This document shows, in pieces, positions 5,080-36,315 of a DNA stretch of 50,100 bases. Every line of letters starts with the position of its first letter. Position 1 is the first letter of the stretch. The stretch lies in the NCBI RefSeq assembly GCF_004010195.1, contig NC_057719.1:14551760-14601859 (forward strand), written 5' to 3'. The notes under the pieces are model-generated. The model saw nothing but the letters and a program-made list of their open reading frames with translations. It ran no database searches and was not told the origin of the DNA. The translations under genes and the position numbers were made by a program. The DNA comes from Chiloscyllium plagiosum. Taxonomy: Eukaryota.

Positions 5080-5114
5080 CACCTGACGAAGGAGCAGCGC
5101 TCCAAAAGCTAGTG
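5080..5114 (+). ncRNA. Degenerate minimal hammerhead ribozyme motif, family A
   Basis: cac-CTGACGA-A-GGAGC-agc-GCTCC-aAAA-GCTA-gtg. The change of GAAA to AAAA is consistent with CpG decay. Confidence 0.7.
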
Positions 5115-5152
5115 CTTCCAAATAAACCTGTTGGTCTATAAACTGGTGTTGT

Positions 5153-5304
5153 GTGAATTGGCCATGCTAAATTGCCCGTAGTGTTAGGTGAATGGGGTAA
5201 ACGTAGGGGAATGGGTGTGGGTGGGTTGCTCTTCGGAGGGTCGGTGTGGACTTGTTGGGCCGAAGGGTCTGTTTCCACACTGTAAGTAATCTAATCTAAT
5301 CTAA
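5153..5304 (+). mobile_element. HE1 SINE 3' fragment
   Basis: GTGAATTGGCCATGCTAAATTGCCC...GGGCCGAAGGGTCTGTTTCCACACTGTA plus a (TAATC)n tail. Confidence 0.88.
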
Positions 5305-6632
5305 GTAAAATATAATTTGGCATTAGGAGCACATAGGTGACTGAAAATTGCAACTAAAATATTTCTTAAAATGCCAAGTGTATAAACCTCAATGCAGCTT
5401 GATGTTCTCTGGGATTGCTTTGGCCCATTTGATAGTGTTCAAAATGCTAACTCACTCAGGCAAATTAACAAATGCGTGTTTCTCGTTCGACCGATATTCC
5501 TCCCCCAGAGAAGTGTGTCACGGGGCATATTTGAATTCAGTCTCATTTGCATATATTTGTTGCTCCAGTGAATTCTGTAAGACCCAACAAAGTTATTTTC
5601 TTCTGTGCTGCAGATCACTTTGAACCCCTTGGCTTTTCCTGACTGAATTCAACCATATATTGCCAAGGAAGCTTTTCTGGGATTGATCTAAATCTGGGAT
5701 TATAAGCAAAAATTCAAATGCAGCCAAGACAGATCCAGAAATTTAGAAAATATGTCAGCTATTCATGCATTAATTTGTAGAAATTGAGAGCAGATGATTT
5801 CCTCAGTACTTGTTTACATGCTTTTGACAATCGGTTTTCTCATACAAGTTTTTTGTTTTTAAATTATTTATCTTAAATCCAAATGCATTTCTTCATTTGC
5901 CAGACTAAGATATAATCTATCTGCCCTCTGCTTTTACTCAGCAACAAAGCAGTAGCAACATGAATCTAATTCAACCTTCAGACCACAACATTCTATCTGC
6001 TACATGAAGATACATAAAGTTCAATAACAAATAACGATTGGAAGGGGACTTAAATATACCTCTGTCAAGGAAAATTCTCGATGCCGAAACATGCTGCAAG
6101 AAGCAATTGAGCAAGTATGGTAGAAAATAGCAATGCCAGGTCAGAAAAAGACTCGGAGAAAAAGGAAATATTAGATAGCAGAACATTATTTCCTCCTGTT
6201 CTTTATATTTTAGCAACCCTTTCACAGACTTGAATCCAGTGTTTTGTTTTAAATCTAGCCAGGCATCTAATCCCATTTGGCCCTATTTTCTGGTCTTTCA
6301 TGGTGTTTGTGGATCTCACTCAGTTTTCAATCTATTTTGGCACCATCCTTTAGATCTCTGAAGCTCTTCATATTTTGTGAATATGATCTAAATCAAACTC
6401 AGTATGAAAATGACTTAAGTACTTTGGTATTTATTGACACCAGTCATCTCTGTGTGCCATTTAATGATATAATATAATTCATTACAATTATTTCTGGAGC
6501 ATCTGTTTTTTTATATAGAAAACTGCTATTGATTTTCTTGCATTTTGTATTCTCTAATTTGTGTGAAAGTTGAAAGCAGGGAGGCAGTACTTTCAAACAT
6601 TATTTCCTTGTTCATGCTTGCAGCTGCCATGT

Positions 6633-7020
6633 AAGACCATAAGATATAGGACCAGAAATAGGCCATTCAGCCCATCAAATCTGCTCTGCCTTTCGATGAG
6701 ATCGTAGCTGATTTGACACTCCTCATCTCCACATTCCTGCCTTTTCCCCGTAACTCTTGGTTTCATTATTGATTAAAAATCTGTTTATCTCAGCCTTGTA
6801 TATATTTAATGACCCAACTTCAACAGCCCATTGTGGTAAAGAATTCCACAAATTCACAACCCTTTGAGAGAAGAAATTCATCCTCACCTCACTCATAATT
6901 GTGCAACCCTTTATTCCCAGATAATACCCGCTGGGCCTAGATTCTCCTATAAGAGGAAAACAATCTTACTGCATCTACCCTGTCAAGTCCCCTAAGAATC
7001 ATGTCTATTGCTATAAATTC
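6633..7020 (-). mobile_element. CR1 LINE 3' fragment
   Basis: AAGACCATAAGATATAGG...GGCCATTCAGCCC is a reverse-strand CR1 3' end. Confidence 0.85.
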
Positions 7021-8960
7021 ATAAGAACATAAGAAATAGGAAGAGGAGTAAACTATTCAGCCCCTCGAGCTTGCTCAACCCTTCCATAGGATGATGGCCA
7101 ATCTGACATTCCTCATATCTATTTCCTTGCCCTTTCCCCCATGTCCCTTGATTCCCCCACTAATCAAGAGCCAATCTATCACAGCCCTAAATACACACAA
7201 GGACTCGGACCCCACAGCTCTCTGTGAGTCCAAAGACTCACAACCTTCTTAGAGAAGAAATTCCTCCTCATCTCTTTCCTAAATTGGTGCCGCTTTATTC
7301 TGAGACCATACCGTCTGGCCCATGAAGAGAAACGTCCTCTCAGCATTTACATTTTCAGGAATTATATATGTTTCAATGAGATCACGTCTCATTTTTGTAA
7401 TTTCCAATGAATAGAGTCACAACGTTGTTCATTAAACGATCCCTCCATAAGGGAATCCTCCTCGTGAACCTTCTCTGGATTACCGCCACTTAAATGATAG
7501 CTTCCCTGAAATAAGGGGACAAAACTCCTCACAGTACTGATGTGATCTCACCAGCACCTTATACAGTTAGCAAGACTTTTCCTGAAATCCTATTAAAATA
7601 AGGACCAACATTCCATTAACCTTCCTGACTACCTGCCGCACCTGTGTGCTTGCTTTCTATGTTTCATGTGTGAGGCTTCACAAGTCCCTTTGTGTTGCAG
7701 CTTTCTGCAGTTTTCTCCATTTAAATAATATTCTGTTCTCTTGCCCTCCCTTCCAAAATGAACTGTCATACATTTTCCCACATTATACTCCATTTGTCAA
7801 CTCCTATTTAACCTATCAATATCTCTCTGTAAACTGTTTGTATCGCTCTCAAACCTACTTTTCCACCGGTTTTTATGTCGTCTGCAAATTTGGCTCCAAC
7901 CCATTCAGTTCCTTCCTCCAAGTCATTGTTAGATATTGTAAACAGTTGTGGTCACAGCATTGATACCTACTGGTAATAGGTTGCCAGCCTGAGAAAGAAC
8001 CCTTTATTCGCTGTTTCCTATTTAGGAGTCAAATCTCTACCCACACCAATATATCTCCTCCAACATCATGGGCTCTTATCTTGTAACTTAACCTTTTTTG
8101 AGGTATGTTTTCAAACAGGTGTCCAAATAAACAGGTGTCCAAATAAAACACCTCTACTGGTTTCCCTCTATCCAGTTTGGTTGAGTCTTTCACAAAAAAC
8201 TCTTGCCAGACACGATTTGCTTTCATGAAGCCATGTTGGCTCTGCCTGATTATATTATGTTAAAAAACACACAGCACACAGATTATAGTCCAACAGTTTA
8301 ATTGGAAGCACACTAGCTTTCCAATTAAACTGTTAGACTATAACCTGGTGTTGTGTGATTTTTAACTTTGGACACCCCAGTCCAACACCGGCATCTCCAA
8401 ATCATGATTATGTTATGCTGGTTTTCCAAATGTTCTGCTATTTCTTCCTTAAAAATTTATTCCAACATTTTTCTAACAATGCTGGGCTAATCCATCTCCA
8501 CCAACCCATTTCTGCCTCCCTCCCTTTCTGAATAGAGGTGTCACATCAATCGTTTTCCAAGCCTCTGGTACAATTCCAGATCTTTGGAAAGTTACAACCA
8601 AAGCATCCATGACCTTTGTAGCTATCTCTTTAAGATCCTAACATGAAGCCATCATGGCCAAGGAACTTATCTGTGTTCAGGCCCATTAGTTTGCCTATTA
8701 CTACTTCTCTCATGATGATGGTTCTTAATTTCTCCTCTATATTCTTTAGTATTAATGCAATGTTCAAAGTACCTTCCACTGTAAAGATTGATTCAAATAT
8801 CTGGTTAACTCCTCTACATTTCCTTGTTCCCCATAACTGTCTCCTCAGATTCATTTTTGAAGGGGCCTATGTTCTCTTTGATTTCTCCCTTTCATTGTTT
8901 TTACATCTAAAGAAGCTCATACTGTCAGTTTTTTGTATTTGCCTTCATAGTTTCTGGGCT
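7021..8960 (-). mobile_element. Decayed CR1 LINE, RT region to 3' end
   Basis: The tail reads ATAAGAACATAAGAAATAGG. Minus-frame remnants include KLDRGKPVEVFYLD, KIRAHDVGG and GKLMGLNTDKFLGHDG. Confidence 0.85.
8260..8404 (+). mobile_element. Fold-back PLE-terminus mini-element, family A, with 13-bp TSD
   Basis: Imperfect inverted arms at about 8259-8308 and 8319-8366, then a 38-nt tail. TSD: TGATTATATTATG (8247-8259) and TGATTATGTTATG (8405-8417). Confidence 0.85.
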
Positions 8961-9169
8961 CACCTCACATTTTGTTACATTCCAACATGTACAGAGCCAA
9001 TCTACTCAACCTCTGCTCATAAGACAGTCCATCCATACCTGGTATCAGCCTTTTGCCTAATGCTATAAACAAGGTCGGATGGACACATCATTTCCTTTCT
9101 ACTCCCATTCTTCCACCAGTCACAATAAACATTCGATGTTGACAGGATGATGATGTGACCTATTATCAG

Positions 9170-9350
9170 GAAACATAAAAACTGGGAGCAGAAGCAGGCC
9201 ATCGGCATTTTCAGCCTGCTCTGACATTCAGTCAGATCATGCAAACATTTACACATAGAAATATGGAAAATAGGAGGGGAGGAGGCCATTCGGCCCTTCG
9301 AGGCTGCTCTGTCATTCATCACAATCATGGCTGATCATCCAACTCAATGG
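9170..9350 (-). mobile_element. Two abutting CR1 3'-end fragments
   Basis: GAACATAAAA...GGCCATCGG and CATAGAAATATGG...GGCCATTCGGCCCTTCGAG...ATCATGGCTGATC. Confidence 0.75.
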
Positions 9351-10293
9351 TTCCCCTCCAAGCACGGGATTGATGTGGATTTCACCAGTTTCCCAAGGAC
9401 AGAAATCTCCCCCCGTCCTCACCTTCCACCCCACTAACCTCCAGATACATCGCATCATCCTTCACCATTTCCACCACCGGCAAACGCATCCCACCACGAG
9501 AGATATATTTCCTTTCCCACCCTATCCACTTTCCATAAAGACTATTCCCCCTGCGACTCTCTTGTCAGGTCCACATCCCTCACCAGCCCATCCTCCCCTC
9601 CCAGCACTGCCACTGCAGGAATTGCAAAACCTGCACCCACACCTCTCCCCTCACCTCCGCCCAAAGCCCCAAGGAGCCTTCTACATCCATCAGAAATTTG
9701 CCTGCACTTCCACACATCATTTACTGTATCCATTGCTCCCGATGTGGTCTCCTCTATGCTACTTACACGTCGCCTACTTGCAGAACGCTTCAGAGAACAT
9801 CTCCGGGACACACGCACGAAGCAACCCCACTGCCTTGTGGCTGAACACTTCAACTTCCCCTCCCACTCCACCAAGGACATGCAGGTGCTGGGCCTTCTCC
9901 ATCGCAAAACCCTAACCACCCAACACCTGGAGGAAGAACACCTTGGGACCCTCCAACCATGCCGGATTAATGTGGATTTCACCAGTTTCCTCATTCCCCC
10001 TCAGAATGCCTCATCTTCCAACTCGGAATCCTTCAATTACACCGGATTAATGTGGATTTCACCAGTTTCCTCATTCCCCCTCCCAGATCCAACCTTTCAA
10101 CTCAGCACTGCCCTTATGACCTGCCATATCTGTCCATCTTCCTTCCCCCCATCCACTCCACCCTCCTCTCTGACCTATCACCTTCACCCCATCTCCATCC
10201 ACCTATTGCACTCTCAGCTAACTTTCCCCCAGGCCCACCCCCCTCCAGTTTACGTCTCCATCCCCTCGGCTCACAAGCCTCATTCCTGATGAA
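9350..10293 (+). mobile_element. Penelope-like element fragment: RT C-terminal linker, GIY-YIG endonuclease pseudo-ORF and pyrimidine-rich 3'UTR, ending in a truncated hammerhead
   Basis: Frames encode VLTFHPTNLQIHRIILHHF...PTTRDIFP, an IYCIxCSRCGLLY-like motif, and RLLAERFREHLRDTR...VAEHFN...SHSTKDMQVLGL...GTLQP..INVDFTSF. It ends with CATTCCTGATGAA. Confidence 0.92.
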
Positions 10294-11420
10294 TACCTTT
10301 CCTAACAAGAATCTATCCACCTCTGTCTTCAAAAATAATCAAATAAGCAAAAAAACCAGACTCCTCTGGTTTCTAAAGTTCTAAAGTCACACAATCCTCT
10401 GTTCTCCTCAATTCTCTCTAAAAAGGGCAACCCCTCATTTTAAAACAAAGCTGACCACCAACAAGAAGATGACTATTCAGAATCTTCTCTACTTCAAATA
10501 AATCACCCCTCACTCTTCAAAACTCCAATGGAAACAAACTCAGTCTGTCCAACCTTTCCTCATAAGATACCTCACTCATTCCAGATTTTCATCTTGTAAA
10601 CTACCTCTCACATAATTGCATCCTTCGTTTAAAAGGAGACCAAAGCTGCACACATTGAATCCCTATAGTGTGCAAACAGGCCATTTAGCCCACACCAACC
10701 CTCTGAACGGCATCCCACCCCACCCTCCTACCCTGTATTCCCCACATTTAATCTACCTAGCCTGTACATCACTGAATGCTATGGGTAATTTTGCACAGCC
10801 AATCCACCTAACATGCACATCCTTGGACTGTGAGACGAAACTGGAGCACCCAAAGGAAACCCATGCAGACACGAGGAGAATGTGCAAACTTCGCACAGAC
10901 AGTTGCCTGAGGGTGGAATCCAACCCAGGTCCCTGGCACTGTGAGGCAGCAGTGATAACCACTGAGCCACTGTGCCACCTCACAGTATTTGAAATGTCTC
11001 AGAAATGTCCTGGAAAACTGAAGTATCCTATCCTTACTTTTATGTTCAGTTCCTCTTGAAATAAAGGATAGGATCCCATCAGCCTTCTTGATGCCAGATC
11101 CCTATATTAACATTTGAGCCATATGCAATAGGACACGTAAATCTGTCCCCACTTCAGAATTGGGCATATGTTCTCCATTTAAGGTCTGCTCTGCCTTTTT
11201 AAAGTGAACATCCTCACATTTCCCCACATTATTTTCAAATCTGCCAGATTTTGCTCATGCACCCAATCTAGCCATATCTGTCTTCATCCTCTTTGTGTCT
11301 TCATCACAACATAGCTTCCGATTTATCTTTTTATCATGTGCAAATGCTGCCGCCATGCTTTTCATTTCCTTCATTTATTTCAGTGACATAATTTGCATAA
11401 AGCTGAGGCACCAGCACAGA
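10294..11420 (-). mobile_element. Old CR1 fragment, interrupted by HE1
   Basis: Degenerate reverse-strand CR1 RT/3' sequence (TCCAACCTTTCCTCATAAG; CTCACATTTCCCCACATT; TCATGTGCAAAT). Confidence 0.7.
10655..10980 (-). mobile_element. HE1-type SINE, near full length
   Basis: The minus-strand head is GGTGGCACAGTGGCTCAGTGGTTATCACTGCTGCCTCACAGTGCCAGGGACCTGGGTTGGATTCC, with Pol III A and B boxes. Confidence 0.92.
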
Positions 11421-11656
11421 CCGCTGTGGGCTGGGTAATCCAAGATGGAGGATGGGAAACAATTGTTGCTGTAAGAGCTGTTCCCTTTTTGAGGTATTTC
11501 AGGTATTGGAGCTGATTCCCTCGAATTCTAGGAGCAGTAATTACTGTTTTATAAGCTGTTGCATTGGTTTGGAACTTTGAGAACAAAAAGATCAAAACAA
11601 CGGCACTTTAAAAAAGACGAAGAGAGATAAATGCAGAGACCACATGGTCAGTGTAA

Positions 11657-11662
11657 GAGAGA

Positions 11663-11697
<35 letters not shown>

Positions 11698-11706
11698 GGA
11701 GGGAGG

Positions 11707-11752
<46 letters not shown>
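11657..11752 (+). repeat. (GA)n/(GGGA)n microsatellite
   Basis: Direct reading; it explains the ERERER ORFs. Confidence 0.97.
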
Positions 11753-11756
<4 letters not shown>

Positions 11757-11807
11757 AACCTACGTGAATCTGCACAGCTACTGCCTTTGCTGTTTGAGTT
11801 CAAGTAT

Positions 11808-12332
11808 TTGTATTGTGTGGAATTCTGGTCTCCTTCCTCTAGGAAGGATGTTGTGAAACTTGAAAGGGTTCAGAAAAGATCTACAAGGATGTTGCCAGGG
11901 TTGGAGGTTTGAGCTATAGGGAGAGGCTGAATAGGCTGGGGCTGTTTACCCTGGAGCATTGGAGGCTGAGGGTGAGACGTTTTACAAAATCATGAGGGGC
12001 ATGCATAGGGTAAATAGACAATATTTTCCCTGGGTTGGGAGAGTCCAGAATTAGAGGGCATAGGTTTCGGGTGAGAGCGAAAAGATTTAAAATAGGACCT
12101 AAGGGGGGGTGTGGTGCGTGTATGGAATGAACTGCCAGAGAAAGTGATGGAGGCTGGTACAATTACAACCTTTAAAAGACATCTGGACCTGTATATGAAT
12201 AGGAAGGGTTTAGAGGGATATGGGACAAGTACTGGCAAATGGGACTAGATTAATTTAGGATATCTGGCCAGCATGGACGAGTTGGACTGAAGGGTCTATT
12301 TCTGTGCTGTACATCTCTGTGACTCTATGACT
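11808..12332 (+). mobile_element. CR1 LINE 3' fragment
   Basis: YCVEFWSPSSRKDVVKLERVQKR. The 3' end is GGACTGAAGGGTCTATTTCTGTGCTGTA...GACTCTATGA. Confidence 0.93.
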
Positions 12333-12334
12333 TC

Positions 12335-12850
12335 ACTTATTACGTCCTGCCAATCAGAAAAGAGACTCATTTATGCATATTCCCTGTTTTCTGCCAGCCA
12401 GCCAATACAACCAGAAGATAAAACAATAGAGCGTAGAACAGGCCCTTTGGCTCTCGATGTTGGCGCCGACCTGTGAACTATTCTCACTACACCATCCCAT
12501 CATCATCCATCTGCTTATCCAAGGATTGTTTAAATCTCCATACTGTGGCTGAGTAAACTACATTGGCAGGTGGGGCATTCCACATCCTTACCACTCCATG
12601 TAATACCTGATACCGTGAGTTCAAACTTTGTGCAGTAACCTTTGATGTGGAACCTTGTCAAAGGTTTTCTGGCAATCGAAGTATAATATGTCTATAATTG
12701 CCCCTTTGTGCACAACGCAAGTTACACCTTCAAAGATTCCAGTAAACATTGGTTAAAGATAATTTCCCTTTCACGAAACCATGGTGACTTTTCCAATTAT
12801 TTGGAGTATTTCAAAATACCCAGTGGAAATCTCCTTAATGATCAGGGAGT
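12335..12850 (-). mobile_element. CR1 RT remnants with a nested CR1 3' fragment (about 12418-12600)
   Basis: ACCTTGTCAAAGGTTTTCTGG (a DFQKxFDKV-like motif on the minus strand), TTCACGAAACCATG (HGFV), and the tail AACAATAGAGCGTAGAACAGGCCC. Confidence 0.7.
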
Positions 12851-13589
12851 TTTTTTTTTATAGATTTGAGACTGAATCTGGTTTCGTATTAGGAACAAGT
12901 TATGCAGGTTCCTTTAGCTAGCAAAGAATAACAGCTTTATTTGAAATAAAGCTAAATGTGCATAGATTATTGCAAAGAAACGGTGCAAGCTGTGCCAAGA
13001 TAGGTATAACATATTCTAACAATCCAAACTTAACCTGAGGAAAATGTTAGAATACCCCACAGAACACATCAAACAACAACCAGGATTGATACAGACCCTA
13101 TGGGTTTCTCAGCAGTTCCTCAGAAGTTAGTGACACTGTGGGTGAGCAAATCTTGTTAAAATTTCAGGAGAGATTCTAATTGTCAACTTTTGATGATATG
13201 GCCTGGAAATTCTTTCAAAAACTACTGTCATACACTGTCTCAATGACTGCTCATGTTTTGGTGTTTCGCCCCCCCTCTCCTAGGTTTACGTTCCCAAGGA
13301 TTCTGGAAACTGCACTCTAGCACTGACTCACAAGCATATTTCACAAACTGCAAACTTCACCAAGTCAGTGCAATACTTGTTTCTCCAGCTATATTCCGGC
13401 TCAGTTACACAAAGTAAAATGCTGACTTACGGCTCTCCTTCTCCCTCATTCACTGAACTATCAGCGCTACACAGTTTCTCTCAGGTCCCCACAGCATTTA
13501 GGATGTTCCCTGAATGAATCTTCTGCCTCCTAGAACAAGAACCATCGCCAAACCCTAACCACCTGATGCCTAGAGGGGCTTCCAATACT

Positions 13590-13825
13590 TTGAGCCAGTG
13601 ACACTGAGGAACGGTGATATGTTCCTAAGTCAGAATAGTGTGTGGCTTGAATGATAATTTCCCATGTATCCTTCCCGGGAAGTGGTGAGTATTCCATCAC
13701 ACTCCTAACCTGTGCCTTGTAGATGGTGGACAGGCTTTGTGGAGTCAGAAGATGACTTAGTCACTGCAGGTTACCAAGCCTCTGACCTGCTCTTTTAGCT
13801 ACAGTACTTGTATGGCTAGTCCAAG
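13590..13825 (-). mobile_element. Fragment of the second LINE family (the SINE partner, see 18580-20740)
   Basis: GTATTCCATCACACTCCT..CTGTGCCTTGTAGATGGTGGACAGG..CCAAGCCTCTGACCTGCTCTT. The reverse complement resembles 19660-19680 and 20340-20400. Confidence 0.6.
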
Positions 13826-13844
13826 GCACAACCTTCAGGGTGAA

Positions 13845-13990
13845 GGGCCGCACTTTAGAATTGAGATGAGGAGATATTTCTTCAGTAATGAGGGTGGTCA
13901 ATCTGTGGAACCCATTTCTGCAGAAAGCTGTGGAGGCCACGTCATTGAGTGTATTTAAGATGGAGATTGATTAGTAAGGATCAAGGGTTT
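13845..13990 (+). mobile_element. CR1 3'-region fragment
   Basis: GAGATGAGGAGATATTTCTTC...AGGGTGGTCAATCTGTGGAA...GCTGTGGAGGCC. Confidence 0.75.
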
Positions 13991-13991
13991 T

Positions 13992-14235
13992 GTGGTTCTG
14001 GAGTCACGTGTACATAAAACAAGTTAAGGATGGCAGATTTCTTTCCTTAAAGGGCATCAGTGAACCTCGTAGATTTTTATAGCAATCAACAATAGTTGCA
14101 CTTCTCTACTTTCTAATTCTAGATTTTTATTGAATTCAAATTTCACCATCAGCCATGGTGGAACACAAATGCAAGTGCCCAGAACATCAGCCTGGGGTTC
14201 TGGATTACTGGTCCACTGACATTTCCACTACATTA
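13992..14235 (-). mobile_element. Shark SINE, family 2 (non-HE1), partial
   Basis: CTGGAGTCACGTGTA...AAGGATGGCAGATTT...TTGAATTCAAATTTCACCATCAGCCATGG, homologous to 19140-19475 and 38730-39240. Confidence 0.8.
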
Positions 14236-14259
14236 TCCAAATCTAGATCTCCACAAGTA

Positions 14260-15612: not shown

Positions 15613-15813
15613 GAGGCGAAAGTGAGGACTGCAGATGCTGGAGATCAGAGTCGAGATTAAAGTGGTGCTGGAAAAGCGTAGCAGGTCAGGCAGCATCTGA
15701 GCAGCAGGGAAATCGACGTTTCGGGCAAAAGCTTTTGCCTGAAACGTTGATTTTCCTGCTCCTCAGATGCTTCCTGCCCTGTTGTGCTTTTCCAGCACCA
15801 CTCTAATCCAGAC
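15613..15813 (-). mobile_element. Fold-back PLE-terminus mini-element, family B, with 15-bp TSD
   Basis: Arms of about 83 bp (15649-15731 and 15732-15814) meet inside hammerhead stem II (GGCAAAAG|CTTTTGCC). A 36-nt tail lies at 15613-15648. TSD: TTCCCAAACTTTAAC (15598-15612) and TTCCCAAATTTTAAC (15814-15828). Confidence 0.92.
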
Positions 15814-17609
15814 TTCCCAAATTTTAACCCAGGACAAGCCTTCATAACAGGGGATACCTTGCTAGTAACAATGATCCCAGTATCCGAGGGGCAAGAAGGC
15901 TGACTGGGTTGAGAAACATATCAGCCATGATCAAATCGTGGAACAGACTTGACAGGCTGAGTGGCTTAATTCTACATCATTTAACATTACTTTCATAAAC
16001 ATGTATTTCTCAACACACAAAATTGACTACATTTCAAAAGTCCTTAATTAACTGGAAGCCAAATCTTTAGATGACATTGTTTTGCTTTCAGCTGGAATTA
16101 TGTGTCCGAAGTGTCCAAAATAATTAATGGTTTTAATGGAGCAAATAATGGCTGCGCTCCAAAAATATTGGAATGACATTGAATGAGGCATTCATGCCCG
16201 ATAAGAATGGAGTGTTTTTAAAATGTTTGCCCTGTTAAACTTGTGCCCTATCAACATGTAATCCAGTTCTGAGCACCAGGTTGACACTGCATGAGGCACA
16301 TGTATCTGGTGAGAGTCGAGAGAATTTAAACTGTTAGAATATAGTGGTGAAAGCAGAATCTATAATTGCTTTTAAAAACAAGGCAGATGAATGTTTAAAG
16401 AAGAGAAAATTGATTCTGTATGAAGAATAAACGGGGATAGGACTAAGCATACACTTCTTTCAGGTAATTGGCATCAGCATGATAGACTTATAGCTTCCTG
16501 TACAGTGGAAATTATGCAACTTCGCTGGGCTCAAGTTATATACAAAACAGTACAGAATCAACTTGCAATGTTATAGCAATAAAGTTATTCGGGCATTTAA
16601 ACAAACGAGTAATAGCATGATATGGTGTAGTATATAGTGCAGAAATAGTGTTCTGAAAAATTGCCAAATTAGTTTAAAGTAAGCATTTCCAAACAGTGTG
16701 CAAGTGGTTGAGCTGTAAAGCACATCTGTGGCACAGATTTTCCGTTGACCTCCTACTGAAAGACAGCACTAGACTGTAGACATCACAAGCATGTTAAATA
16801 TCCCACATAAGATGGATGTTGCCTTTTTGTCACAGAGCCATCTCTTGGAATCCTGCTTGTTTCTTTGATTTGTTGCTTTCTGCTATATGCTTTAAAAGAA
16901 ATAAATATACTTCTACAGTACTACATTCGGCAGAACAAGTTCCTGAAGCCCAATAACTGTGAGCAAATTTGTTAAGTTATGGCAATTACATTAAATCCAC
17001 AATAATTCAAAGATTCAAAATCTTAAATATGAATGTCTTATTTTGTTTGGAAGGTTAATTTATTCTCAGTACCAGAATGATCTTCCCTATTTTAATCCTA
17101 CAATACAAGCAAATAAATATGTTTAGAAGCTGACTCTATCTCTTTAAGTGCTTTTTTATTAAAGTCTAAGATTTGTGCATACCAGCGGTGATTTTAATTG
17201 CAAATCCGAAAATCTCGGCAGTTGGGAGCCTCAAAGTCTGTGTTTCATCTGGACAGGACTCTATCCTGACCTTCTTTTATGGCTTCTAACATATTTTGCT
17301 GCTACACCCCCCCCCCCTCCCCCCACCTCCAAAAGTAGGCAATATCTGCCATGTGAAAGCATGTGCTTATGAGAAGTAATATAACTTGACTGACTGGCAC
17401 ACTCAGAAATCATACCCATGTTATACCATTTATCAAAAGCGCTCTATAAAGTTGTGATTTTTTTTGCCACACTGTGCAGAAACATAACAGTGCTATCTCT
17501 CCTGCCAATTAGTGTTTTTTCAATCATTTACCATTCAGTAGCCATAATGTAATCAGACCTGGTGTAATGTTAGCCTACCTGTATTTTTGAAAGTTTATCA
17601 CCTCTCCTG

Positions 17610-19699: not shown

Positions 19700-20330
19700 A
19701 GCTGTTCACAATGCTCTACATCAAGCGCTGACTGAGTGACAGCTTTGGGGAACACTCGTGTCTGTCTGCAAAAATGACCTAAGTGTCTGGTTGATTGCCA
19801 CTTCAACACACCATCTTGTTCCCTGGCCAAAACATTAGCCTTGGATTTGCTGCAGTGCTCCACTCCAAGCTGGAAGAACAGCACCTCATTTTCCACTTGG
19901 GGACACTGCAGCCTTCGGAACTTTGTATCAAGTTCAATAATTTTAGGGCCTGAACACCTTCTTCCATGTCCTTTAGCCAACCCCTTCCCCTCATCCCAGG
20001 CCTTGTCATGACCTGGGCTTCCTTTAGCACAGCCGATCTATTTTCAACTACTTATGGCCCACATTAGGAACTCCTCTTTCTCCCTGGCTTACCAATAGAC
20101 ATCCCTTTGTCTGCCAAACTGTTTTTCTCTCCTTCTAGACTTCACCTCTACCTATCACTTACTCCTTTAGCCCACCCACCCACTCCCCCTTCCTGCCCCA
20201 CCACCACCTTTTGCTAACCTTCATTGATTCTGAAGAAGGGTCACTGGGCCCAAAGTGTTAATTTTGCTTTCTGTCCACAGATGCTGCCAAACCTGCTAAG
20301 TTTTTTTAGCAGTTTATGTTCTTGCTTTGG
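19700..20330 (+). mobile_element. Penelope-like element 3' fragment (GIY-YIG C-terminus, 3'UTR, degenerate family D hammerhead)
   Basis: F.EH, CHFNT and KLEEQHLIFHLGTLQPS...KFNNFRA*. At 20230-20260 the sequence is CTGAAGA-A-GGGTC-actg-GGCCC-AAAG-TGTT. Confidence 0.88.
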
Positions 20331-22187: not shown

Positions 22188-22314
22188 TGATGTGAAGGTG
22201 CCGGTGTTGGCCTGGGATGGACAAAGTTAAAAATCACATGAAGGAGCAGTGCTCTGAAAGCTAGTGCTTCCAAATAAACCTGTTGGACTATAACCTGGTG
22301 TTGTGTGATTTTTA
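22188..22314. mobile_element. Asymmetric fold-back PLE-terminus mini-element, family A
   Basis: A 38-nt tail (22188-22225) and short arm GTTAAAAATCACA precede an opposite-orientation copy that starts within the hammerhead (TGAAGGAGCAGTGCTCTGAAAGCTAGTG). Probable TSD: TCCATGTTTCTA and TCTATATTTCTA. Confidence 0.8.
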
Positions 22315-22459
22315 TCTATATTTCTAGACAACTTGCTTAGTTTGTTTCTGCTACAACATGTATTAAAATTTAATTAACTTTTTTTTATTATTCATTCATG
22401 CGACATGGCTGTGTCAGTATTTATTGCCTGTCCCCAGTTGCCCTGGAGACGGTGATTCA

Positions 22460-27285: not shown

Positions 27286-27361
27286 GAATCTTAGAAGGAG
27301 GCCAGTCAGCCCCTCATGTCTGCACTGGTTCAGACTGAATGTATAATTCATCCAGCTCCAT

Positions 27362-27875
27362 TCATAGAACATAGAACGTTACAACGCAGTACAGGACCTT
27401 CAGCCTTTGATGTTGCTCTGACCTATGAAACCAATCTGAAGCCCATCTAACCAACACTATGCCATTAACATCCATATGTTTCCCCAATGACCATTTAAAT
27501 ACCCTTAAAGTTGGTGAGTCTACTACTGTTGCAGGCAGGGCATTCCACACCCTTATTAGTCTCTGAGTAAAGAACCTACCTCTGACATCTGTCCGATATC
27601 TATCATCCCTCAATTTAAAACTATGTTCCCTCGTGCTAGCATCACCATCCAAGGAAAAGGCTCTCCCTGTCCACCCTATCTAACCCTCTGATTATCTTGT
27701 ATGTCTCTATTAAGTCACCTCTCAACCTTCTTCTCTCTAACAAAAACAGCCTCAAGTCCCTCAGCCTTTCTTCATAAGACCTTCGCTCCATACCAGGCAA
27801 CAACCTGGTAAATATCCTCCACAACCTTAGCAGTACTTTCACAACCTTCCTATAATGCGGTGACCAGAACTGTAC
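27362..27875 (-). mobile_element. Young CR1 3' fragment (same subfamily as 214-1850)
   Basis: VQFWSPHYRK...ERRRLRGDLIETYKIIRGLDRVDRESLF, with tail CATAGAACATAGAAC. Confidence 0.95.
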
Positions 27876-28068
27876 GTTATTCTCCTGATGTCTAACTCTG
27901 CGCATTCATCCCTTCCAGATAACATGAAGATATGCGTTAGGAGGAGTGGGGTTCTCAGCTCTCAGATCTGCACTGTCATTCAATAAAGTCATTGCTGATC
28001 TGATGTCTCTTTACATTATCGCCTACTCCTAAAAACACTTCACCCCCACTTTCCTAACAAGAATCTAT

Positions 28069-28229
28069 CTATTAAACAAAACAGAACTGAAAGATCTGAG
28101 GATGCTGTAAATCAGAAACAAAAACAGAAATTGCTGGAAAAGCTCAGCAGGTCTGGCAGTGTCTGTGGAGTGAAATCAGAGTTAATGTAGTGCTGAGGAA
28201 GGATCATACGACCTGACATGTTAACCCTG
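28069..28229. mobile_element. PLE-terminus mini-element, family D, with short inverted part and 10-bp TSD
   Basis: A minus-oriented terminus (GATGCTGTAAATCAGAAAC..TTGCTGGAAAAGCTCAGCAGGTCTGGCAG) is followed by plus-oriented CTGAGGA-A-GGATC..GACCT-GACA-TGTT. TSD: AAGAATCTAT at 28059-28068 and 28230-28239. Confidence 0.75.
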
Positions 28230-28357
28230 AAGAATCTATTGATCTCTGATTTGAGAAATATTCAAAGACTCTGTTTCCATCAGCTTTTGAAGAAGAGAGC
28301 TCCAAGTTCCTAAAACTCACTGTCCTCTCTATCTTAAATGAGTAACCCCTGACTTGA

Positions 28358-28564
28358 TAAAAACAAGTGTTGGAAAGCAGAGTCTAGATTAGAGTGGTGC
28401 CGGAAAAGAACAGCAGGTCAGGCAGCATCCAAGGAGCAGGAAAATCAACGTTTCAGACAAAAGCCCTTCATCAGGAATGATGAAGGGCTTTTGCCCAAAA
28501 CATTGATTTTCATGCTCCTTGGATGCTGCCTGACCTGCTGTGCTTTTCCAGCACCACTTTAATC
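28358..28564. mobile_element. Fold-back PLE-terminus mini-element, family B, with back-to-back hammerhead motifs and 15-bp TSD
   Basis: Arms at 28385-28473 and 28478-28566 surround a GGAA spacer. TSD: TAACCCCTGACTTGA (28343-28357) and TAACCCCTGATTTGA (28565-28579). Confidence 0.92.
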
Positions 28565-28588
28565 TAACCCCTGATTTGAATACAGTGA

Positions 28589-28712
28589 TGAAGGGCTTTT
28601 GCTCGAAACATCGAGTCTCCTGCTCCTCAGATGCTGCCTGACCTGCTATGCTTTTCTGTCATTACTCTTATCTTGACTCTAATCTCCAGCGTCTGCAGTC
28701 TTCGCTTTTGCC
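28589..28712 (+). mobile_element. Single-arm PLE-terminus mini-element, family B, with perfect 13-bp TSD
   Basis: TGAAGGGCTTTTGCTCGAAACATCGA...CTCCAGCGTCTGCAGTC. TSD: TTGAATACAGTGA at 28576-28588 and 28713-28725. Confidence 0.9.
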
Positions 28713-28945
28713 TTGAATACAGTGACTGCTAATTCTAGATTCTCCCACAAGAATCTCGAATCCTTTCAGTATGCACCTGATTGAGACTGTTCAGCATCTT
28801 TTATGTATAATCATGTTGTCTCTTACTTTTCTAAACCCTAGCAGATGCAAGCCTAGCCTGAGCAACGTTTCCTCATAGGGCAATCCACCCAGTCTTGGTA
28901 AGAATCCATTAAAACCTTTCTGACCTGCTTCCAACATATTTACAT

Positions 28946-29045
28946 ATGTACACCCACCCCCAGTCCTGAAGAAGGGTTACACCCGAAACATTGACTTCTC
29001 CACCTCCTGATGCTGCCTGGCTTGCTGGGTTCTTCCTGCTTGCCA
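28946..29045 (+). mobile_element. PLE-terminus mini-element, family C, with perfect 16-bp TSD
   Basis: TSD: TCCAACATATTTACAT at 28930-28945 and 29046-29061. It is homologous to the terminus of the PLE at 32935-33560. Confidence 0.9.
28962..28996 (+). ncRNA. Minimal type I hammerhead motif, family C
   Basis: AGTC-CTGAAGA-A-GGGT-tac-ACCC-GAAA-CATT-GACT. Stems I and II are perfect 4-bp stems; stem III has a CG-to-CA change. Confidence 0.8.
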
Positions 29046-29104
29046 TCCAACATATTTACATCGTTCATTAAATTTCCTTGGTTCGTCAATGCAGGGTGAC
29101 AATA

Positions 29105-29460
29105 GCATAAGGGGCATTCTGACTATGATATCGATCTCGTGATCCCAGATTATTTTCAGGGAACCTGAGCTCAAATCCTGCCATGGGAGATCCTATTCAA
29201 TAAAGGGGGAATAATCTGGAGTTAAGATTATAATGATGACCATGAAAATATTGTGACCACTGGGGGAACCCCCACTTGGTTCACTAAGACGTTTTAGGGG
29301 AGGAAACTAACATGGACTGGCCTACATGTGACTCCAGACCCACAGCAATGTGGTTGACTCTTGACTGCCCTCTGGCCAACTAGGAATGCTAATAAATAAA
29401 CAAATGCTACCTTAGCCAGCAACACCCGCATCCTGTGACAGAATGTTAAACAAAAAAGTG
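29105..29460 (+). mobile_element. Shark SINE, family 2
   Basis: GAGCTCAAATCCTGCCATGG..TGATGACCATGAAA..TGGTTCACTAA..GGCCTACATGTGACTCCAGACCCACAGCAATGTGGTTGACTCTT..AGCCAGCAACACCCGCATCC. Confidence 0.85.
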
Positions 29461-30899
29461 AAAAATACGTCAAGCCTGAAGAAAGTCAGTTTATTTCCCT
29501 TCATCAGTGCTGAGAAATGTGATGGCTCTTATCCAATACATGAGTGATCTTGTGTGAAGGAGTTGTCCTGCAAATGAGTGAAAGCGACAAAAACAGGAAT
29601 TGCTGGAGAAACTCAGCAGGCCTGGCAGTATAAGGCCTTAAGATTTAGGAGCAGAACTGGCCCATCAGGTCTGATCTATCATTCAATCATGTTTCTCAAC
29701 CCCATTCTCCTGCCTTCTCCCTATCACCCTTGATCCTTTTATCAATCAAGAACTTATCTATCTTTGTCTTAAATACACTCAGTGGCTTGGTCTCTACAGC
29801 TTTGTGTGGTAATGAGTTCCACAGACTCACCACACTCTGGCTGAAGAAATTTCCCCCTCATCTCAGCTCGAAAGGGTTGTCCCTTCACTCTGGGGCTGCG
29901 CCCTCTGGTCCTAGTCTCTCCTACTAATTGAAATGCCTTCTCCGTGTTGGCTCTATCCAGGCCTCTCAGTATTCTGTAAGTTTCAAAGAGATTCCCCCCT
30001 CACCCTTCTAAACTCCATTGAGTACAGACCCAGAGTCCACAATCGCTCCACATATGACTAGCTTTTCATTCCCAGGAAAATTCTTGTAATCTTCCGTTAG
30101 ACCCCCACAACTGCAGCACATCCTTCCTTAGATATGGGACCAAAACTGCTCACAAGATTCCAGATGCAGTCAGAACAGATATTTGTACAGCCTCAGCAGT
30201 ACATCCCCCTGTTCTTGTATTTCACCCCGCTTGAAACAAATCCTAACATTGCATTTGCCTTCCTAACTGCCAAACGAACTTGTGCGTTAATCTGAAGAGA
30301 AACCCTGAATGAGGACTCCCAAATTCCTTCATGCTTCAGACTTCTGAAACCTTTCCCCATTTATAAGACAGTGTATGCCTCTTCTTCCTACTAAAGTGCA
30401 TAACCTCACACTTTCCCACATTGTATTCCATCTGTCACTTCTTCGCCCACTCACCTAGCCTGTCCAAGTCTTTCTGTAGCCTCCCTGCTTCCTCAGTACT
30501 ACCTATCTTTGTGTCATCTGAAAACTTAGCAACAATGCCCTCAGTTCCTTCATCCAGATCGTTAATGAAAACGTGAATAGTTGTGGTCCGAACAACGACT
30601 CCTGTGGAATTCTACTAGTCACCAGTTACTATCTAAGGCCTGCTTTCTGTCATTCCTCTATCCATGCAAGTACCTTGCCCCTAACACCATTGGCTCTATT
30701 GTTATTTAGCAACTTCCTATATAGCACCTTATCAAAGCCCTTCTAGAAACTGAAATAGATCAAGTCCTCTGGCTCTCCTGTTTTTAACTTGTTTATTATC
30801 TTGTCAAAGAATTCTAACAGATTTGTCAGGTGTGATCTCCCCTAGATGAAACCATGCTGACTCTGTCCTATTTTACAATATTGTCCACAATCTCAACCT

Positions 30900-31105
30900 T
30901 AATAATCAAAGAACAAAGAACATTACAGCACAGGATAATAATCAAAGAACAAAGAACATTACAGCACAGGAACAGGCCCTTTGGCCTACCAGGTCTGCGC
31001 TGATCCAGATCCTCTATCTAAACCTGCCGCCTATTTTCTAAGGATCTGTATCCCTCTGCTCCCTGACCATTCATGTATCTGTCTAGATACAGCTTAAATT
31101 GACTA
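30900..31105 (-). mobile_element. Short CR1 3' end nested in CR1, with a perfect 36-bp tandem duplication at its tail junction
   Basis: TAATAATCAAAGAACAAAGAACATTACAGCACAGGA occurs at 30900-30935 and 30936-30971. Confidence 0.88.
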
Positions 31106-31792
31106 TGTAATCTTATTAATGACTGAGGTCAGGCTAATCAGCCTATAGATTCCTGCCTTCTGCCTCTTTCTCTTCTTAAATAGGAGTGTTACAGGAGCTC
31201 TTTTCTCCCCAGCCCTCTGGCACCCTCCTTGACTCCAGTGATTCGTGAAAGATCACCAGCAATGCCCTTACAATCTCCTCAGCTATCGTCTTCAGGACTC
31301 TGGGGTGTAGTCCATTTGGTCAAGGTGAATTATCCACCTTCAGACCTTTCAGCTTCCCCAGCACCTTCTCCTTAGTGATGACCACAACATTTACCTCTGA
31401 CTCCTGATACTCATGAAGTTCTGGGATGTTGCTACTCTCTTCCACCATGATGACTGAGGCAAAGTACCTATTCAGTTCGTCTGCCATTTCTTTGTTTCCT
31501 ATCACTACTTCTAGTACCTCATTTTCCAGCAGTCCAATGTCCATTACTGCCTCTCTCTTACCTCCTGATATCTAAACAAAAACTTACAATTATTTTTATA
31601 TTACTAACGAGCTTATTCTCAAATTTCATCTTCTTCCCCCTTATTGCTTCTTGCAATATCCTCTGCTGGTTTTGAAAGGCTTCCTAATCTTCTCGTTTTT
31701 CACTAATCTTCACCACATTGGATGACTTTTCTTTTGCTCTTATGCTGTCCTTGACTTCCCTTATCAGTCACGGTTGCCTCGTCCTCTCCTTA

Positions 31793-31937
31793 TTCTGGAT
31801 CAATGGTGCTGGAAGAGCACAGCAATTCAGGCAGCATCGAGGAGCTCAATGCTGCCTGAATTGCTGTGCTCTTCCAGCACCATTGATCCAGAATCTGGTT
31901 TCCATCATCTGCAGTCATTGTTTTTACCTCATTTTTA
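31793..31937 (+). mobile_element. Fold-back PLE-terminus mini-element (B-related) with perfect 46-bp arms and 16-bp TSD
   Basis: 31792-31837 is the exact reverse complement of 31849-31894. TSD: CCTCGTCCTCTCCTTA (31777-31792) and CCTCATCCTCTCTTTA (31938-31953). Confidence 0.92.
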
Positions 31938-32334
31938 CCTCATCCTCTCTTTAGTATGTTTCTTCCTTCTTGATAGGAATTTCTGTTGTGCCTCTCGAAT
32001 TACCCCCAGAAACTCCTGGCATTGTTGCTTCACTGTCTTCCCTGCTAGGCTCGCCTTCCAACCAACTCTGACTAGTTCCTCCCTCATGTCTTTGTAGTTT
32101 CCTTTACTCAGTTGTAACACCATTACATCTGATTCCAGCTTCTCCCTCTTAGACTGCAGGGTGAATTCTATCATACCATGGTCACTGCTCCCTAGGGATT
32201 CCTCCACCTTAAGCTCCCTGATCAAATCTGCCTCATTACACATCATCCAATCCTGAATTGCCTGTGCCTGAGTGGGATCTGCCACAAACTTCTCCTATTC
32301 AGCCTCTCCCATTAGCTCAAGCCCCCCAACCCTG

Positions 32335-32427
32335 ATTCCTGATGAAGGGCTTATGCCCGAAACGTTGATTCTCCTGCTCCTCAGATGCTGCCTGACTGGC
32401 TGTGCTTTTCCAGCACCACACTCTTGA
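32335..32427 (+). mobile_element. Single-arm PLE-terminus mini-element, family B, with 11-bp TSD
   Basis: TSD: CCCCAACCCTG at 32324-32334 and 32428-32438. Confidence 0.9.
32337..32368 (+). ncRNA. Minimal type I hammerhead ribozyme motif with intact core, family B
   Basis: tc-CTGATGA-A-GGGC-ttat-GCCC-GAAA-CGTT-ga. Stem III is the loopless palindrome AACGTT. Confidence 0.85.
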
Positions 32428-32759
32428 CCCCAACCCTGGCAACATCCTTGTAAATCCTTTCTGAACCTTTTCAAGTTTCACAACATCATTCCAGTAGGAG
32501 GGAAGCAAGAACTGCACGCAAAATTCGAAAAGTGGCCAAACCAATGTCCTGTACAGCCGCAACGTCACCTCCCAACATCTCACATAAACAAGCTGAAAAA
32601 AGTCTTCAACCTATTGGCAATTACAAAGACTGAGGCCCATGTACACCTGACCTCCTGGTCCCTAACCTGTCTCAATCACAGTCACACCATCGTTTCTGTG
32701 ACCAGAGATCTAATTAGAATATTCGAAGGAGTTGTGACACCCTGCGAACAATGAGATGA

Positions 32760-33745
32760 CGACCCAGTGGTATTGTTACTGGACCACTACTGCAGACACC
32801 CAAGTAATATTCCACAGACCCAGGTTCAAATCCCCCATGGCAGTTAGTGGAATTTGAATTTAATAAAACCCTGGAATTCAGAGTTTAATGATGACCATGA
32901 AATCATTGCTAATTGTTGGGGAAAAATACACTAACAGGAGGTGGGAAGAACATAGCAAGGCAGACAGCATCAGGAGGTGGAGAAGTCAACATTTCAGGAG
33001 TAACTGTTCTTCAGGACTGGGGCTGGAGTAAGAAGAGCTCAAGATAAAGAGGGGGTGGCGGAGGGTTTTGGGTGGGGAGAGGGGCAGCATGGTAAAGTAG
33101 TGATAGGTAAACACAGGTAGAGGGTACGGCCTGCTTTATTGATGGGAGGAATGAATCCATTTGGTGGCTGGAAGGGTTAATAAGTAGAATGAAAGGGAGG
33201 AGGAGGGGCTGGACAGGGAGTCAGGTGGATAGGAAGGGAGGTTATTTGAAACTGGAAGTTTTCCAGGCGGAAGATGAGGTGTTGTACCTCAGTGAGTCGT
33301 TCCCTAAGTTTACGTTTGGTCTCACTGATGTAGAGAAGACCACATTGGAAGCACCGGATACAGTAAACTCAGTTGGAGGAGAGGTAGGTGAACCTCTATC
33401 TCACCTGGAAGGACTGTTTGGGGCCCTGGATGGAGATAAGGGGGGTGGTGTGCTGGCAGGTTTTGTACCTTTTACAGTTGCAGGGGAAGGAACCCGGGGC
33501 TTCAGCAGGGAGTATGGCATGAACCAAGGAATGATGAAGGGAGCGGTCCTTGCAGAAGGCAGAAACACCCACCAGCTACACTTATGTTCTTTCAGGAAGG
33601 AAGCTACTGTCAGGTCTTCACATGACTCCAGACCCACAGGATTATGGTTGATTCTTAACAGTATTTAACTTAACAATTAGGGATGGGAAATTAATGCTGG
33701 TCTGGTCAGTGACACCCACGTCCGAAGAACAAAAATGAAAAAACT
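32760..33745 (+). mobile_element. Shark SINE, family 2, split by a PLE (pieces about 32760-32930 and 33565-33745)
   Basis: Head: CAGTGGTATTGTTACTGGAC..CCCAGGTTCAAATCCC..GGAATTTGAATTT. Tail: ACATGACTCCAGACCCACAG..CAATTAGGGATGGGAAATTAATGCTGG. Confidence 0.85.
32935..33560 (-). mobile_element. Penelope-like element 3' fragment with GIY-YIG pseudo-ORF and family C hammerhead terminus
   Basis: The minus strand encodes IQGPKQSFQVR..FTYLSPN.VYCIRCFQCGLLYISETKRKLR. The hammerhead remnant AGTC-CTGAAGA...GAAA-TGTT-GACT lies at 32984-33018. Confidence 0.9.
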
Positions 33746-34979
33746 TCCTGAATAAAGTGGCCAGTAAACATTCCTCTCCTGGATACATCACAGTGTCTGT
33801 AGTTCACCCTCCAACCTATAAACTCTGAACTGAAGCTGATCAAGCTATGGCAGATATGTTTACCCTGGATCACCTGGGCATCCAGGAACTCCCACTTGTT
33901 CTTTATTCACTTGTGGGATTTGAGCAATGCTGACTTGGCCAGCATTTATTGCCTTGTCCCTAGTTGCTCTTGGGAAATGGTGGTGCCTTCTTGAACTGCT
34001 CCTGTCCACATGCTATAGGTAGACCCACAATGCTACTCGGGAGGGAATACCAGGGACATCCTGCAAATACATCTCCCAATTTCATTGTGCTTGAATTAAG
34101 TAATGTATTTAGTATTTGGTTAATTAACTTTTAAATAAATTAATATCCCTTCTCGCCACGACTCACTGTACTAATTAATATCTTAGAATTCAATAAATTT
34201 TACCACTTAAGAATTATATAAATAATGGAAACATTAGATTCTTACTTCCCTTTTGCAATAGGCTTGAGGTTTCCATGATGCTGCTAATTGCCTGTCTTGG
34301 GGTCCACTGATTGCTGTTCTATTTTGAATTCCCATTTGAATGCTTCGATTGAATTTGTTCCCACCATAGGCTCAAGCAGTGCACTGTTGACCTTGACCAC
34401 ACACTGCATGATAAAAGATTTCCCTCATGCTGATTTTGTTTCTTTTGCCAAATAATATAAATCTATGCCCTCTCATTTACAAGCGTGGGCAGTTTTTCCT
34501 TATCTATTCTCTGTCCATCATTGTGAATGCCTCCATCCAACCTCATCTCAGGCCTCTCTTTGTCAAGGAAGCTCCTCATGCCCGGGAATGTGTTAATAGA
34601 TTCTGATTCAATCTACCTGCACTCATTAATTATTTGTTTCATTTATCCAGACTGCATTGGAGTGGAGCATCCCACTGCATACACTGCTCTTCACAAATAT
34701 TCACAGAACTTTAGATAATTTTGTCCATACTATTGCTGGAAATACAATTTAATACAATGAAGGCAAGAAAAGGCTTCTTGGATGTTGATGAACAATTGAA
34801 CACACATTCCGTGAACAAATGAATGTAAAGGTTTGGAAAATAAACAAAGGATGAGAAGATTGAAGTGGACAAGATGAATTAATTATGTCAATGCTGGAAC
34901 GGAGTAGGAAATATTAGATTAAGAAAAGAAGTTTATTTACTTTTAATTTTAAATCTGATTTTAAATTTTAAATACTTTT

Positions 34980-35105
34980 TTTTCAGCAAAGGTATTAAGG
35001 GACAAATGCAGATATATAGAGTTCGGTCACTAAACAACCATGATCTCATTGAACAGTGGAACAGGATTGTGGTTTGAATGGCCTACTCCTGTTCTTCTGT
35101 TTCTG
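34980..35105 (+). mobile_element. CR1 3' end
   Basis: AGCAAAGGTATTAAGGG..CCATGATCTCATTGAA..GAATGGCCTACTCCTGTTC. Confidence 0.75.
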
Positions 35106-36013
35106 TGTAAACAGGACGTTTCTTTAAAGACTGACAAATGTTAGATCTCCAACTTAAAATAACAGCTCTCCACCACCTTCATGACGTCAACTAGAGATAG
35201 GCATTAAATGCTGGCCAGCCAGCGAAGCCCGCATCCCACAAATGAAATAAAATAAAAAGTACATAAGTCCATGCAAGTCACATTTCCAATTGTACACTTT
35301 CCTGGTAAGGTTAACAAGGAATGCCAGGAGAGAATACTTACACTGTTAATTATGGATGTACTTCAAATTCTGCATAAAACCTACTTCTTCCACCGTACCT
35401 TTGATCATGCAGCTTAAAGTCTCCTCTCAGAGCTTGCTGTCAGCTCTGTAAAGCATCTTGGAATATTTCACTTTATTTAAAGGGACTATTATTATCAATA
35501 AAAGTTTTTTTGATTAAAGTTTTGCAGCATGTTAGTGGGCAATTAATCTGCAAATGCTGAAACCTCATGAAAATTACGGAGACATTAAGGGTGAGATGCA
35601 GTTTTCGCAAAACTCGTGCTGAAATGTTGCAAATCATCCGACAAATTGGGGCAATTTGCAATTGACAGGGTGTATCTTTTTCACCATTGGCTCATTTGCA
35701 TGCACAGTTCATACACCATTATTTTTTCTCAGCAAATTCTGGCAATTATTTTGACAAGAGTCAGAGAGTGATAGAAATGTACAACACAGAAACAGACCCT
35801 TCAGTCCAACTTGTCCAGCTCGACCAGATATCCTAATCTAATCTAGTCCCATTTGGACAATGTTCCCCTAAACCCTTCCTATTCATAAACCCATCCAGAT
35901 GCCTTTTAAATGCTGCAATTGTACCAGCCTCCACCAGTTCCTCTGGCAGCTCATTCCATACACGCACCACCCTCTGTGCTGTGGTTCTGTTCGCCGAGCT
36001 GGAAGTTTTTGTT

Positions 36014-36053
36014 GCAAACGTTTCGTCCCCTGGCTAGGCGACATCATCAGTGC
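36014..36053 (-). ncRNA. Hammerhead ribozyme motif, family E (left arm, minus strand)
   Basis: GCA-CTGATGA-T-GTCgCCT-agcc-AGGgGAC-GAAA-CGTT-TGC. Confidence 0.85.
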
Positions 36054-36275
36054 TTGGGAGCCTCCTGCGAAGCGCTTCTTTGATGTTTCCTCCGGTGTTT
36101 ATAGTGGTCTGTCCCTGCCGCTTCCGGTTGTCAGTTTCAGCTGTCTGCTGTAGTGGTTGGTATATATACTAACCACTACAGCGGACAGCTGAAACTGAAA
36201 ACCGGAAGTGGCAGGGACAGACCACTATAAACACCGGAGGAAACATCAAAGAAGCGCTTCGCAGGAGGCTCTCAA

Positions 36276-36315
36276 GCACTGATGATGTCGCCTAGCCAGA
36301 GGACGAAACGTTTGC
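36276..36315 (+). ncRNA. Hammerhead ribozyme motif, family E (right arm, plus strand)
   Basis: GCA-CTGATGA-T-GTCGCCTAGCCAGAGGAC-GAAA-CGTT-TGC. Confidence 0.85.

Follow-up and report, generated by a model that had tools for sequence, protein, structure and literature searches.

Hammerhead-like motifs of five families lie in a 50,100-nucleotide stretch of the genome of the shark Chiloscyllium plagiosum (NC_057719.1, positions 14,551,760 to 14,601,859 of the forward strand; hereafter the window). They raise the question of whether such motifs were ever selected to cut RNA and, if so, whether selection acted on the inserted copies or on the elements that gave rise to them. In all likelihood the motifs are minimal type I hammerheads from the terminal repeats of at least five families of Penelope-like elements (PLEs), selected in the source elements, most likely for cutting their own RNA, and the window copies are neutrally decaying fossils. 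The argument starts from the following features, numbered within the window.

5080..5114, plus strand: family A minimal hammerhead; C3 at 5083, stem II at 5091-5103, predicted cut 5111/5112
20226..20263, plus strand: family D minimal hammerhead; G12>A and A15.1>G; upstream GIY-YIG remnant at 19873-19944
28962..28996, plus strand: family C minimal hammerhead; core intact, palindrome ACAT; within an insertion at 28946-29043
32335..32370, plus strand: family B minimal hammerhead; core and ACGT palindrome intact, predicted cut 32366/32367
36014..36053, minus strand: family E hammerhead, minus arm; core intact, predicted cut 36017/36016
36276..36315, plus strand: family E hammerhead, plus arm; C3 at 36279, predicted cut 36312/36313
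35972..36390: complete E insertion; inverted arms 35972-36164 and 36165-36357, one-sided tail to ~36390

All five families share one order: CUGANGA, one extra base, stem II, GAAA, three bases, and N17. The original prediction, of an invariant core with stems that differ between families but stay paired, was borne out for the stem II sequences (A, 5091; B, 32347; C, 28974; D, 20238; E, minus strand, 36014-36053). Reading the motifs likewise confirmed the stem I pairs cac/gtg, agtc/gact, and gca/tgc and the stem III palindromes, AGCT in A and ACGT in B and E. The prediction overlooked the extra base between A9 and G10.1, which is present in every motif (A in families A-D, T in E). Invariance of the core holds for the family consensuses, each of which has the full core, but not for the A and D copies that had been cited. 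The A copy reads AAAA for GAAA (G12>A) and is predicted to be dead, as is the D copy, which reads AAAG and has GTGT at the palindrome position. The cited C copy has kept its core and lost the palindrome. Among the cited motifs, core and palindrome are both intact only in B (32339) and in both E arms, the plus arm having one additional stem II mismatch. A window scan that included the extra base found four exact-core motifs with a stem of at least 4 (three with zero stem mismatch) versus 0.12 (100 shuffles); the canonical scan without the extra base found 0 such motifs. No Rfam hammerhead model matched the window at E values up to 1, and single-strand folds of six window motifs were mostly no better than those of shuffled sequences (z from -0.04 to -2.07).

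To place these copies in their families, we sampled the genome blind to the motifs, taking 10 kb from each of 100 round-number positions (967,225 non-N bases). The sample held 87 exact-core motifs with one extra base, whereas five shuffles held 2-4 each. Allowing 0 or 2 extra bases instead gave 6 and 3 motifs, in or near the shuffle range. Extrapolated to 3.56 Gb, this corresponds to ~320,000 exact-core motifs, and the 311 profile matches in the sample correspond, roughly, to ~1.1 million pieces genome-wide. Features outside the search pattern were counted on 85 motifs (two of the 87 were dropped for locus ends or N). The G10.1 pair was present in 81/85, U16.1 in 80/85, and an N17 other than G in 82/85. 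Positions 15.2/16.2 were self-complementary in 55 of the 85 single copies; in the consensuses this palindrome is GC in A and CG in B-F. The sixth family, F, is kin to E and was seen in the sample with compensatory changes in stem II (L147, L137, L184, and L215).

Copies were then clustered on flank columns only, giving 35 clusters of at least three copies (smaller clusters were dropped), and CpG was restored in family consensuses where CG, TG, and CA were mixed. Eleven of the 35 clusters were chosen for differing stems and scored at nine pair positions (99 cells). As predicted, helices I and II covary over these 11 lineages. Watson-Crick pairs filled 85 of the 99 cells, compared with a mean of 42.7 and a maximum of 60 in 20,000 shuffles of the 3′ letters, although these and the following covariation figures are not p-values, as the lineages are related and the structure was derived from the same lineages. 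Slid controls gave 14-23 Watson-Crick cells of 88 versus 76/88 in register. Between sister lineages 20 cells had changed: 7 by double and 4 by single changes that preserved pairing, and 9 by changes in which one side was unpaired. When 11 real copies were given to a covariation tool, family A being shifted by one column, the covariation score was matched by 2 of 500 shuffles.

The sampled copies also indicate where selection acted. Columns from families A, B, D, E, and F were pooled, with family C left out. A second allele reached at least 15% in 1/50 core columns, 14/64 columns of stem II and its loop, and 34/186 columns of the 3′ flank (core versus flank subfamily-type variable columns, p=0.003). 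In the remaining columns the match to consensus was 95.2% for the core and 93.3% for the flank, from profiles that were seeded with exact-core copies and hence biased slightly toward the core. G12>A was found in 26/165 cases versus 32/177 for G>A at other CpGs. Since the G10.1-C11.1 pair directly precedes G12 in all families (window positions 5104 and 20252), this general base always lies in a CpG, so that inserted copies are inactivated through ordinary methylation decay. Intact 11-nt cores remained in 22/49 A, 57/95 B, 8/32 D, 6/8 E, and 5/15 F copies; in family C, G12 was retained in 1/5 copies and replaced by A in 4/5. Thus, inserted copies decay about neutrally, and flanks and stems changed in the source lineages while the core was kept. 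Because the core is fixed between subfamilies while G12 decays at the CpG rate, selection is placed on source elements and not on copies. Covariation and the lack of subfamily variation in the core back the earlier proposal of selection on source elements, and we infer that self-cleavage was the selected property, the best support being the U6 joins described below.

All five families are of PLE origin: a GIY-YIG sequence lies upstream of each. The family B GIY-YIG domain passes the Pfam threshold, which family E and the window fragments miss; the B reverse transcriptase (RT) falls in assembly gaps. Family E has RT and GIY-YIG in one open reading frame (ORF), with YVDD and YIGQT present (L244, L248, and L249). 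Its protein is 90% identical to a Chiloscyllium punctatum protein and 87% identical to one of Hemiscyllium ocellatum, and its relatives carry PF00078. Family A retains an RT ORF (L255) with the endonuclease (EN) in a broken frame, and families C and D retain EN remnants only. A CX2-5CxxC linker between RT and EN is present in A, B, and C loci; three E loci and three degraded D loci gave no in-frame match. A Zn linker at this place is described as a trait of Neptune and Nematis PLEs (PMC8557442).

The insertions themselves have PLE form. The E insertion at 35972..36390 is flanked by a 12-bp duplication, and the host repeat around it is presumably a CR1-type long interspersed nuclear element (LINE). 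E copies are 97-99% alike and end at two sites ~35 nt apart, ~36354-36357 and 36390 (the one-sided PLE tail). The inverted, 5′-truncated form was common among long loci and is known for PLEs (PMC8557442). An A-type PLE remnant, in pieces at 2638-2815 and 4887-5159, has the A motif at its 3′ end. The C insertion has an 18-bp duplication with 1 mismatch. The B insertion (32335-32426) begins exactly where stem I does and has a 12-bp duplication (32323-32334/32427-32438, 1 mismatch). Short B copies, including this one, often have their first base where stem I starts, 2-6 nt ahead of C3 (33/81). This cluster of 5′ boundaries may mark a transcription start; a cap-derived G was unconfirmed at them, the next base being G in 11/33 only. 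Head-to-tail arrays of short hammerhead units, a trait of non-LTR retrozymes, were absent from the window. In the family E plus arm, an ATG (36285) made up of A9, the extra U, and G10.1 shares its frame with a relative's RT ORF, so the E motif is also under coding constraint.

Probable traces of cleavage were found outside the window, on other contigs, as U6 sequences joined to PLE tails exactly at position 1.1. There are seven such B loci and two A loci (L289, L313-L319, and L321). Two of the 30 U6 loci fetched, from 48 matches, were joined to a B tail at 1.1. An exact pattern that allowed 31 junction positions gave 6/6 B matches at 1.1 (one shared with the U6-locus set), and the family A pattern gave 1/1. 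A wider A search returned the same A locus, one more join at 1.1 (weaker, its U6-like part being ~22 nt long), and one match that is not U6. In all joins the U6 part ends in five T, with no T-run homology at the junction, and the joins differ in 5′ truncation and flanks. The closest sequence to each PLE tail was an uncut copy, not one of the other chimeras (833 comparators versus 8), and two tails matched distinct uncut variants exactly; the evidence leans toward tails from different uncut sublineages. A seeming join inside stem II (L320) was dropped, as its U6 match was just 10 nt. By eye, about one-third of the 30 U6 copies had a tRNA-like short interspersed element attached by its 5′ end (L287, L294, L295, L299, L304, and L307-L312).

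Mature U6 ends in five U and a 2′,3′-cyclic phosphate, and RtcB joins U6 to 5′-OH RNA (PMC6789731); hammerhead cleavage leaves a 5′-OH on the 3′ product (PMC6155905). The joins thus give indirect but base-exact support for the A and B hammerheads having likely been cut in the germ line. We consider it probable that such cutting was recorded as U6 ligated to the 5′-OH product at the scissile bond, in several independent lineages and two families, and that it would strip the leader (in E, the start codon), maybe as a translation switch rather than an insertion step.

A mechanism can be proposed on this basis. Helix III has no loop, and its four-base palindrome would pair with that of a second molecule, the PLE protein probably assisting pairing or cleavage as in the Anolis element. 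A cut after N17, close to the 5′ start of the PLE message, would leave a 5′-OH end that a ligase such as RtcB could join to U6. The start codon would be lost by the cut in family E; in families B and C a candidate ATG would lie ~18 nt beyond the cut. Cut RNA would be a minor template, as nearly all copies extend through the motif. The likeliest selected role would be to process tandem or read-through precursors slowly and to affect translation, and cleavage would not be required for every insertion. Any dimer would form on transcripts of source elements, probably aided by protein. Read-through RNA of the E insertion folds into one long hairpin (-382 kcal/mol) in which both motifs are buried.

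Several results weigh against selection for cutting. With the real copies (family A off by one column), the number of pairs with double changes was matched by 48 of 500 shuffles. Same-family neighbours less than 300 nt apart were 67 inverted, 9 direct, and 2 convergent; as close copies are mostly inverted, neighbouring copies supply no dimer partner. The modelled tandem-dimer fold lay 5-17 kcal/mol above the minimum free energy in 9/9 lineages tried, and no direct tandem of two pseudo-long terminal repeats (pLTR-ORF-pLTR) was present among 36 long loci, many with assembly gaps. The E motif is protein-coding. U6 is also joined inside the GIY-YIG coding region of B-type PLEs (L301 and L305; 2/30 loci), so non-ribozyme joins occur. 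A pattern search for E and F gave 0 U6 joins, and no C or D was among the matches of the 31-position search. For family E, 261 RNA reads ran through the motif with no piled ends, in a polyA single-cell run that is poorly suited to the purpose; a second RNA run had no family E reads. Published work adds that minimal PLE hammerheads cleave poorly even as dimers (PMC4209133) and that, in the Anolis carolinensis element PAc, cleavage is dispensable for insertion in vitro (PMC11167929).

The alternative that survives best is that the 5′ end of PLE RNA kept the fold as a signal for protein binding, packaging, or translation, cleavage being incidental. It would account for nearly all copies coming from uncut RNA, for the start codon within the E motif, for the weak modelled dimer energies, and for the normal insertion in vitro of hammerhead mutants of the Anolis element (PMC11167929). 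We nevertheless regard it as unlikely. The catalytic core stayed fixed between lineages while stems and loops changed, N17 is G in only 3/85 motifs, a mutable CpG palindrome was kept in both Neptune-type and Poseidon-type families, and U6 is joined at the scissile bond.

A second alternative takes the U6 joins as template switching by RT at a structure boundary, silent on cleavage, with the motif a passenger by descent. Template switching is left open in PMC6789731, hammerheads may simply parasitise PLEs (PMC8557442), and the U6 joins in the coding region fit such an origin. The cut is no hotspot for ordinary truncations, however: among B 5′ ends, 0/139 fell at the site and 2/139 within one base, with profile boundaries that blur by a few bases. 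Nor do the junctions show T-run homology, the U6 part always having five T, and the seven pairing-preserving double changes exceed what descent alone gives. This alternative is distinctly improbable.

That inserted copies are functional host ribozymes regulating the surrounding transcript can be set aside almost entirely: the residual core match is slightly above that of the flank, a small gap expected from profile seeding and rare subfamilies, and family E RNA reads exist, but G12 decays as ordinary CpGs do, just 22/49 A, 57/95 B, and 8/32 D cores are intact, two of the five cited copies are predicted to be dead, and the E pair is buried in its hairpin.

Selection of the source hammerheads for cutting remains the preferred explanation. 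The window is composed mostly of repeats, the long ones of which we take to be CR1-type LINEs, and profile searches found 23 pieces of the hammerhead families. Further features of the window are the following.

8245..8385: inverted pair of truncated family A tails, from the profile search
9638..10293, plus strand: B-type PLE 3′ remnant with GIY-YIG at 9638-10081
15649..15814: inverted B pair truncated inside stem II, with a 15-bp duplication
22235-22321: further truncated A copy, from the profile search
28443..28478, minus strand: additional family B hammerhead, core intact
31789..31897: inverted pair of core-less B tails, with a sub-threshold Rfam miRNA match
32924..33054, minus strand: second family C copy, stem II broken; upstream GIY-YIG remnant at 33288-33452 (minus)

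Read directly off the sequence, the remnant at 9638..10293 ends in a hammerhead 5′ half near 10286-10293. The B motif at 28443..28478 is the inverted partner of direct B copies at 28478-28560 and 28586-28669, both without C3. The three B copies at 28374-28688 are apparently one complex insertion, with its two direct copies 108 nt apart. Six below-threshold Rfam miRNA matches, five of them on two inverted repeats (31789-31897 and 36110-36219), were rejected as miRNAs, being inverted PLE ends; silencing by small RNAs could draw on such hairpins.

Whether weak PLE ribozymes cut in vivo is the question to which the U6 joins speak: any PLE-rich genome can be screened for such joins, a readout exact to the base. 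Young families such as E, with their nearly identical copies, supply sequences for assay. If the preferred explanation is true, the cut would strip the 5′ leader and may act as a translation switch, not an insertion step. The function of hammerheads in EN-positive PLEs has been called unclear (PMC8557442). Among the papers listed in literature searches, none dealt with hammerheads of shark PLEs or with U6 joined to PLEs; work on small variants (Lunse, Weinberg, Breaker) may bear on both and may already include sharks. A preprint (10.64898/2026.07.22.740005) reports, in its available part, retrozymes in one chondrichthyan and activity in 1/9 Xenopus dimers.

The architecture and the cross-family covariation are already known, and the present motifs add shark examples and a very large copy number. 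As described in the accessible text of PMC4209133, the minimal hammerheads of metazoan PLEs are likewise type I, with no helix III loop, a palindromic 15.2/16.2, a short helix I, an extra base between 9 and 10.1, and a G10.1-C11.1 pair; they too form many covarying families per genome, with opposite-strand pairs and mostly solitary truncated copies. Two searchable supplement files of that report contain no shark names. Small PLE variants that cleave as dimers, as summarized in PMC6765202, share the type I form and a palindromic, very short stem III. Unlike the motifs of PMC4209133, those of shark families A-D mostly have a helix II of 4-5 bp. The ~320,000 exact-core motifs compare with ~4,000 in coelacanth and ~9,000 in Xenopus, obtained with different descriptors. 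The genomic trace of cutting described here is absent from the accessible text of that report.

Family E most resembles PAc, a Poseidon element (PMC11167929, as far as its available text goes). In both, the ORF begins at stem II, the cut lies ~26-28 nt after the start codon, a tail of 30-40 nt has two 3′ ends (36354 and 36390 in the window), and no RNA ends are seen at the cut, PAc having no RNA-seq reads that end there. PAc cleavage has been assayed and needs the PLE protein, whereas cleavage by the shark motifs is predicted; shark families A-C differ from PAc in their Neptune/Nematis-type Zn linker. The U6 joins resemble U6/LINE-1 chimeric pseudogenes, in which U6 with five U is joined to retroelement RNA and then reverse transcribed (PMC6789731). 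In that system, as described there, the cuts are assigned to an unidentified endoribonuclease acting at variable sites, whereas here the join falls at one predicted ribozyme bond.

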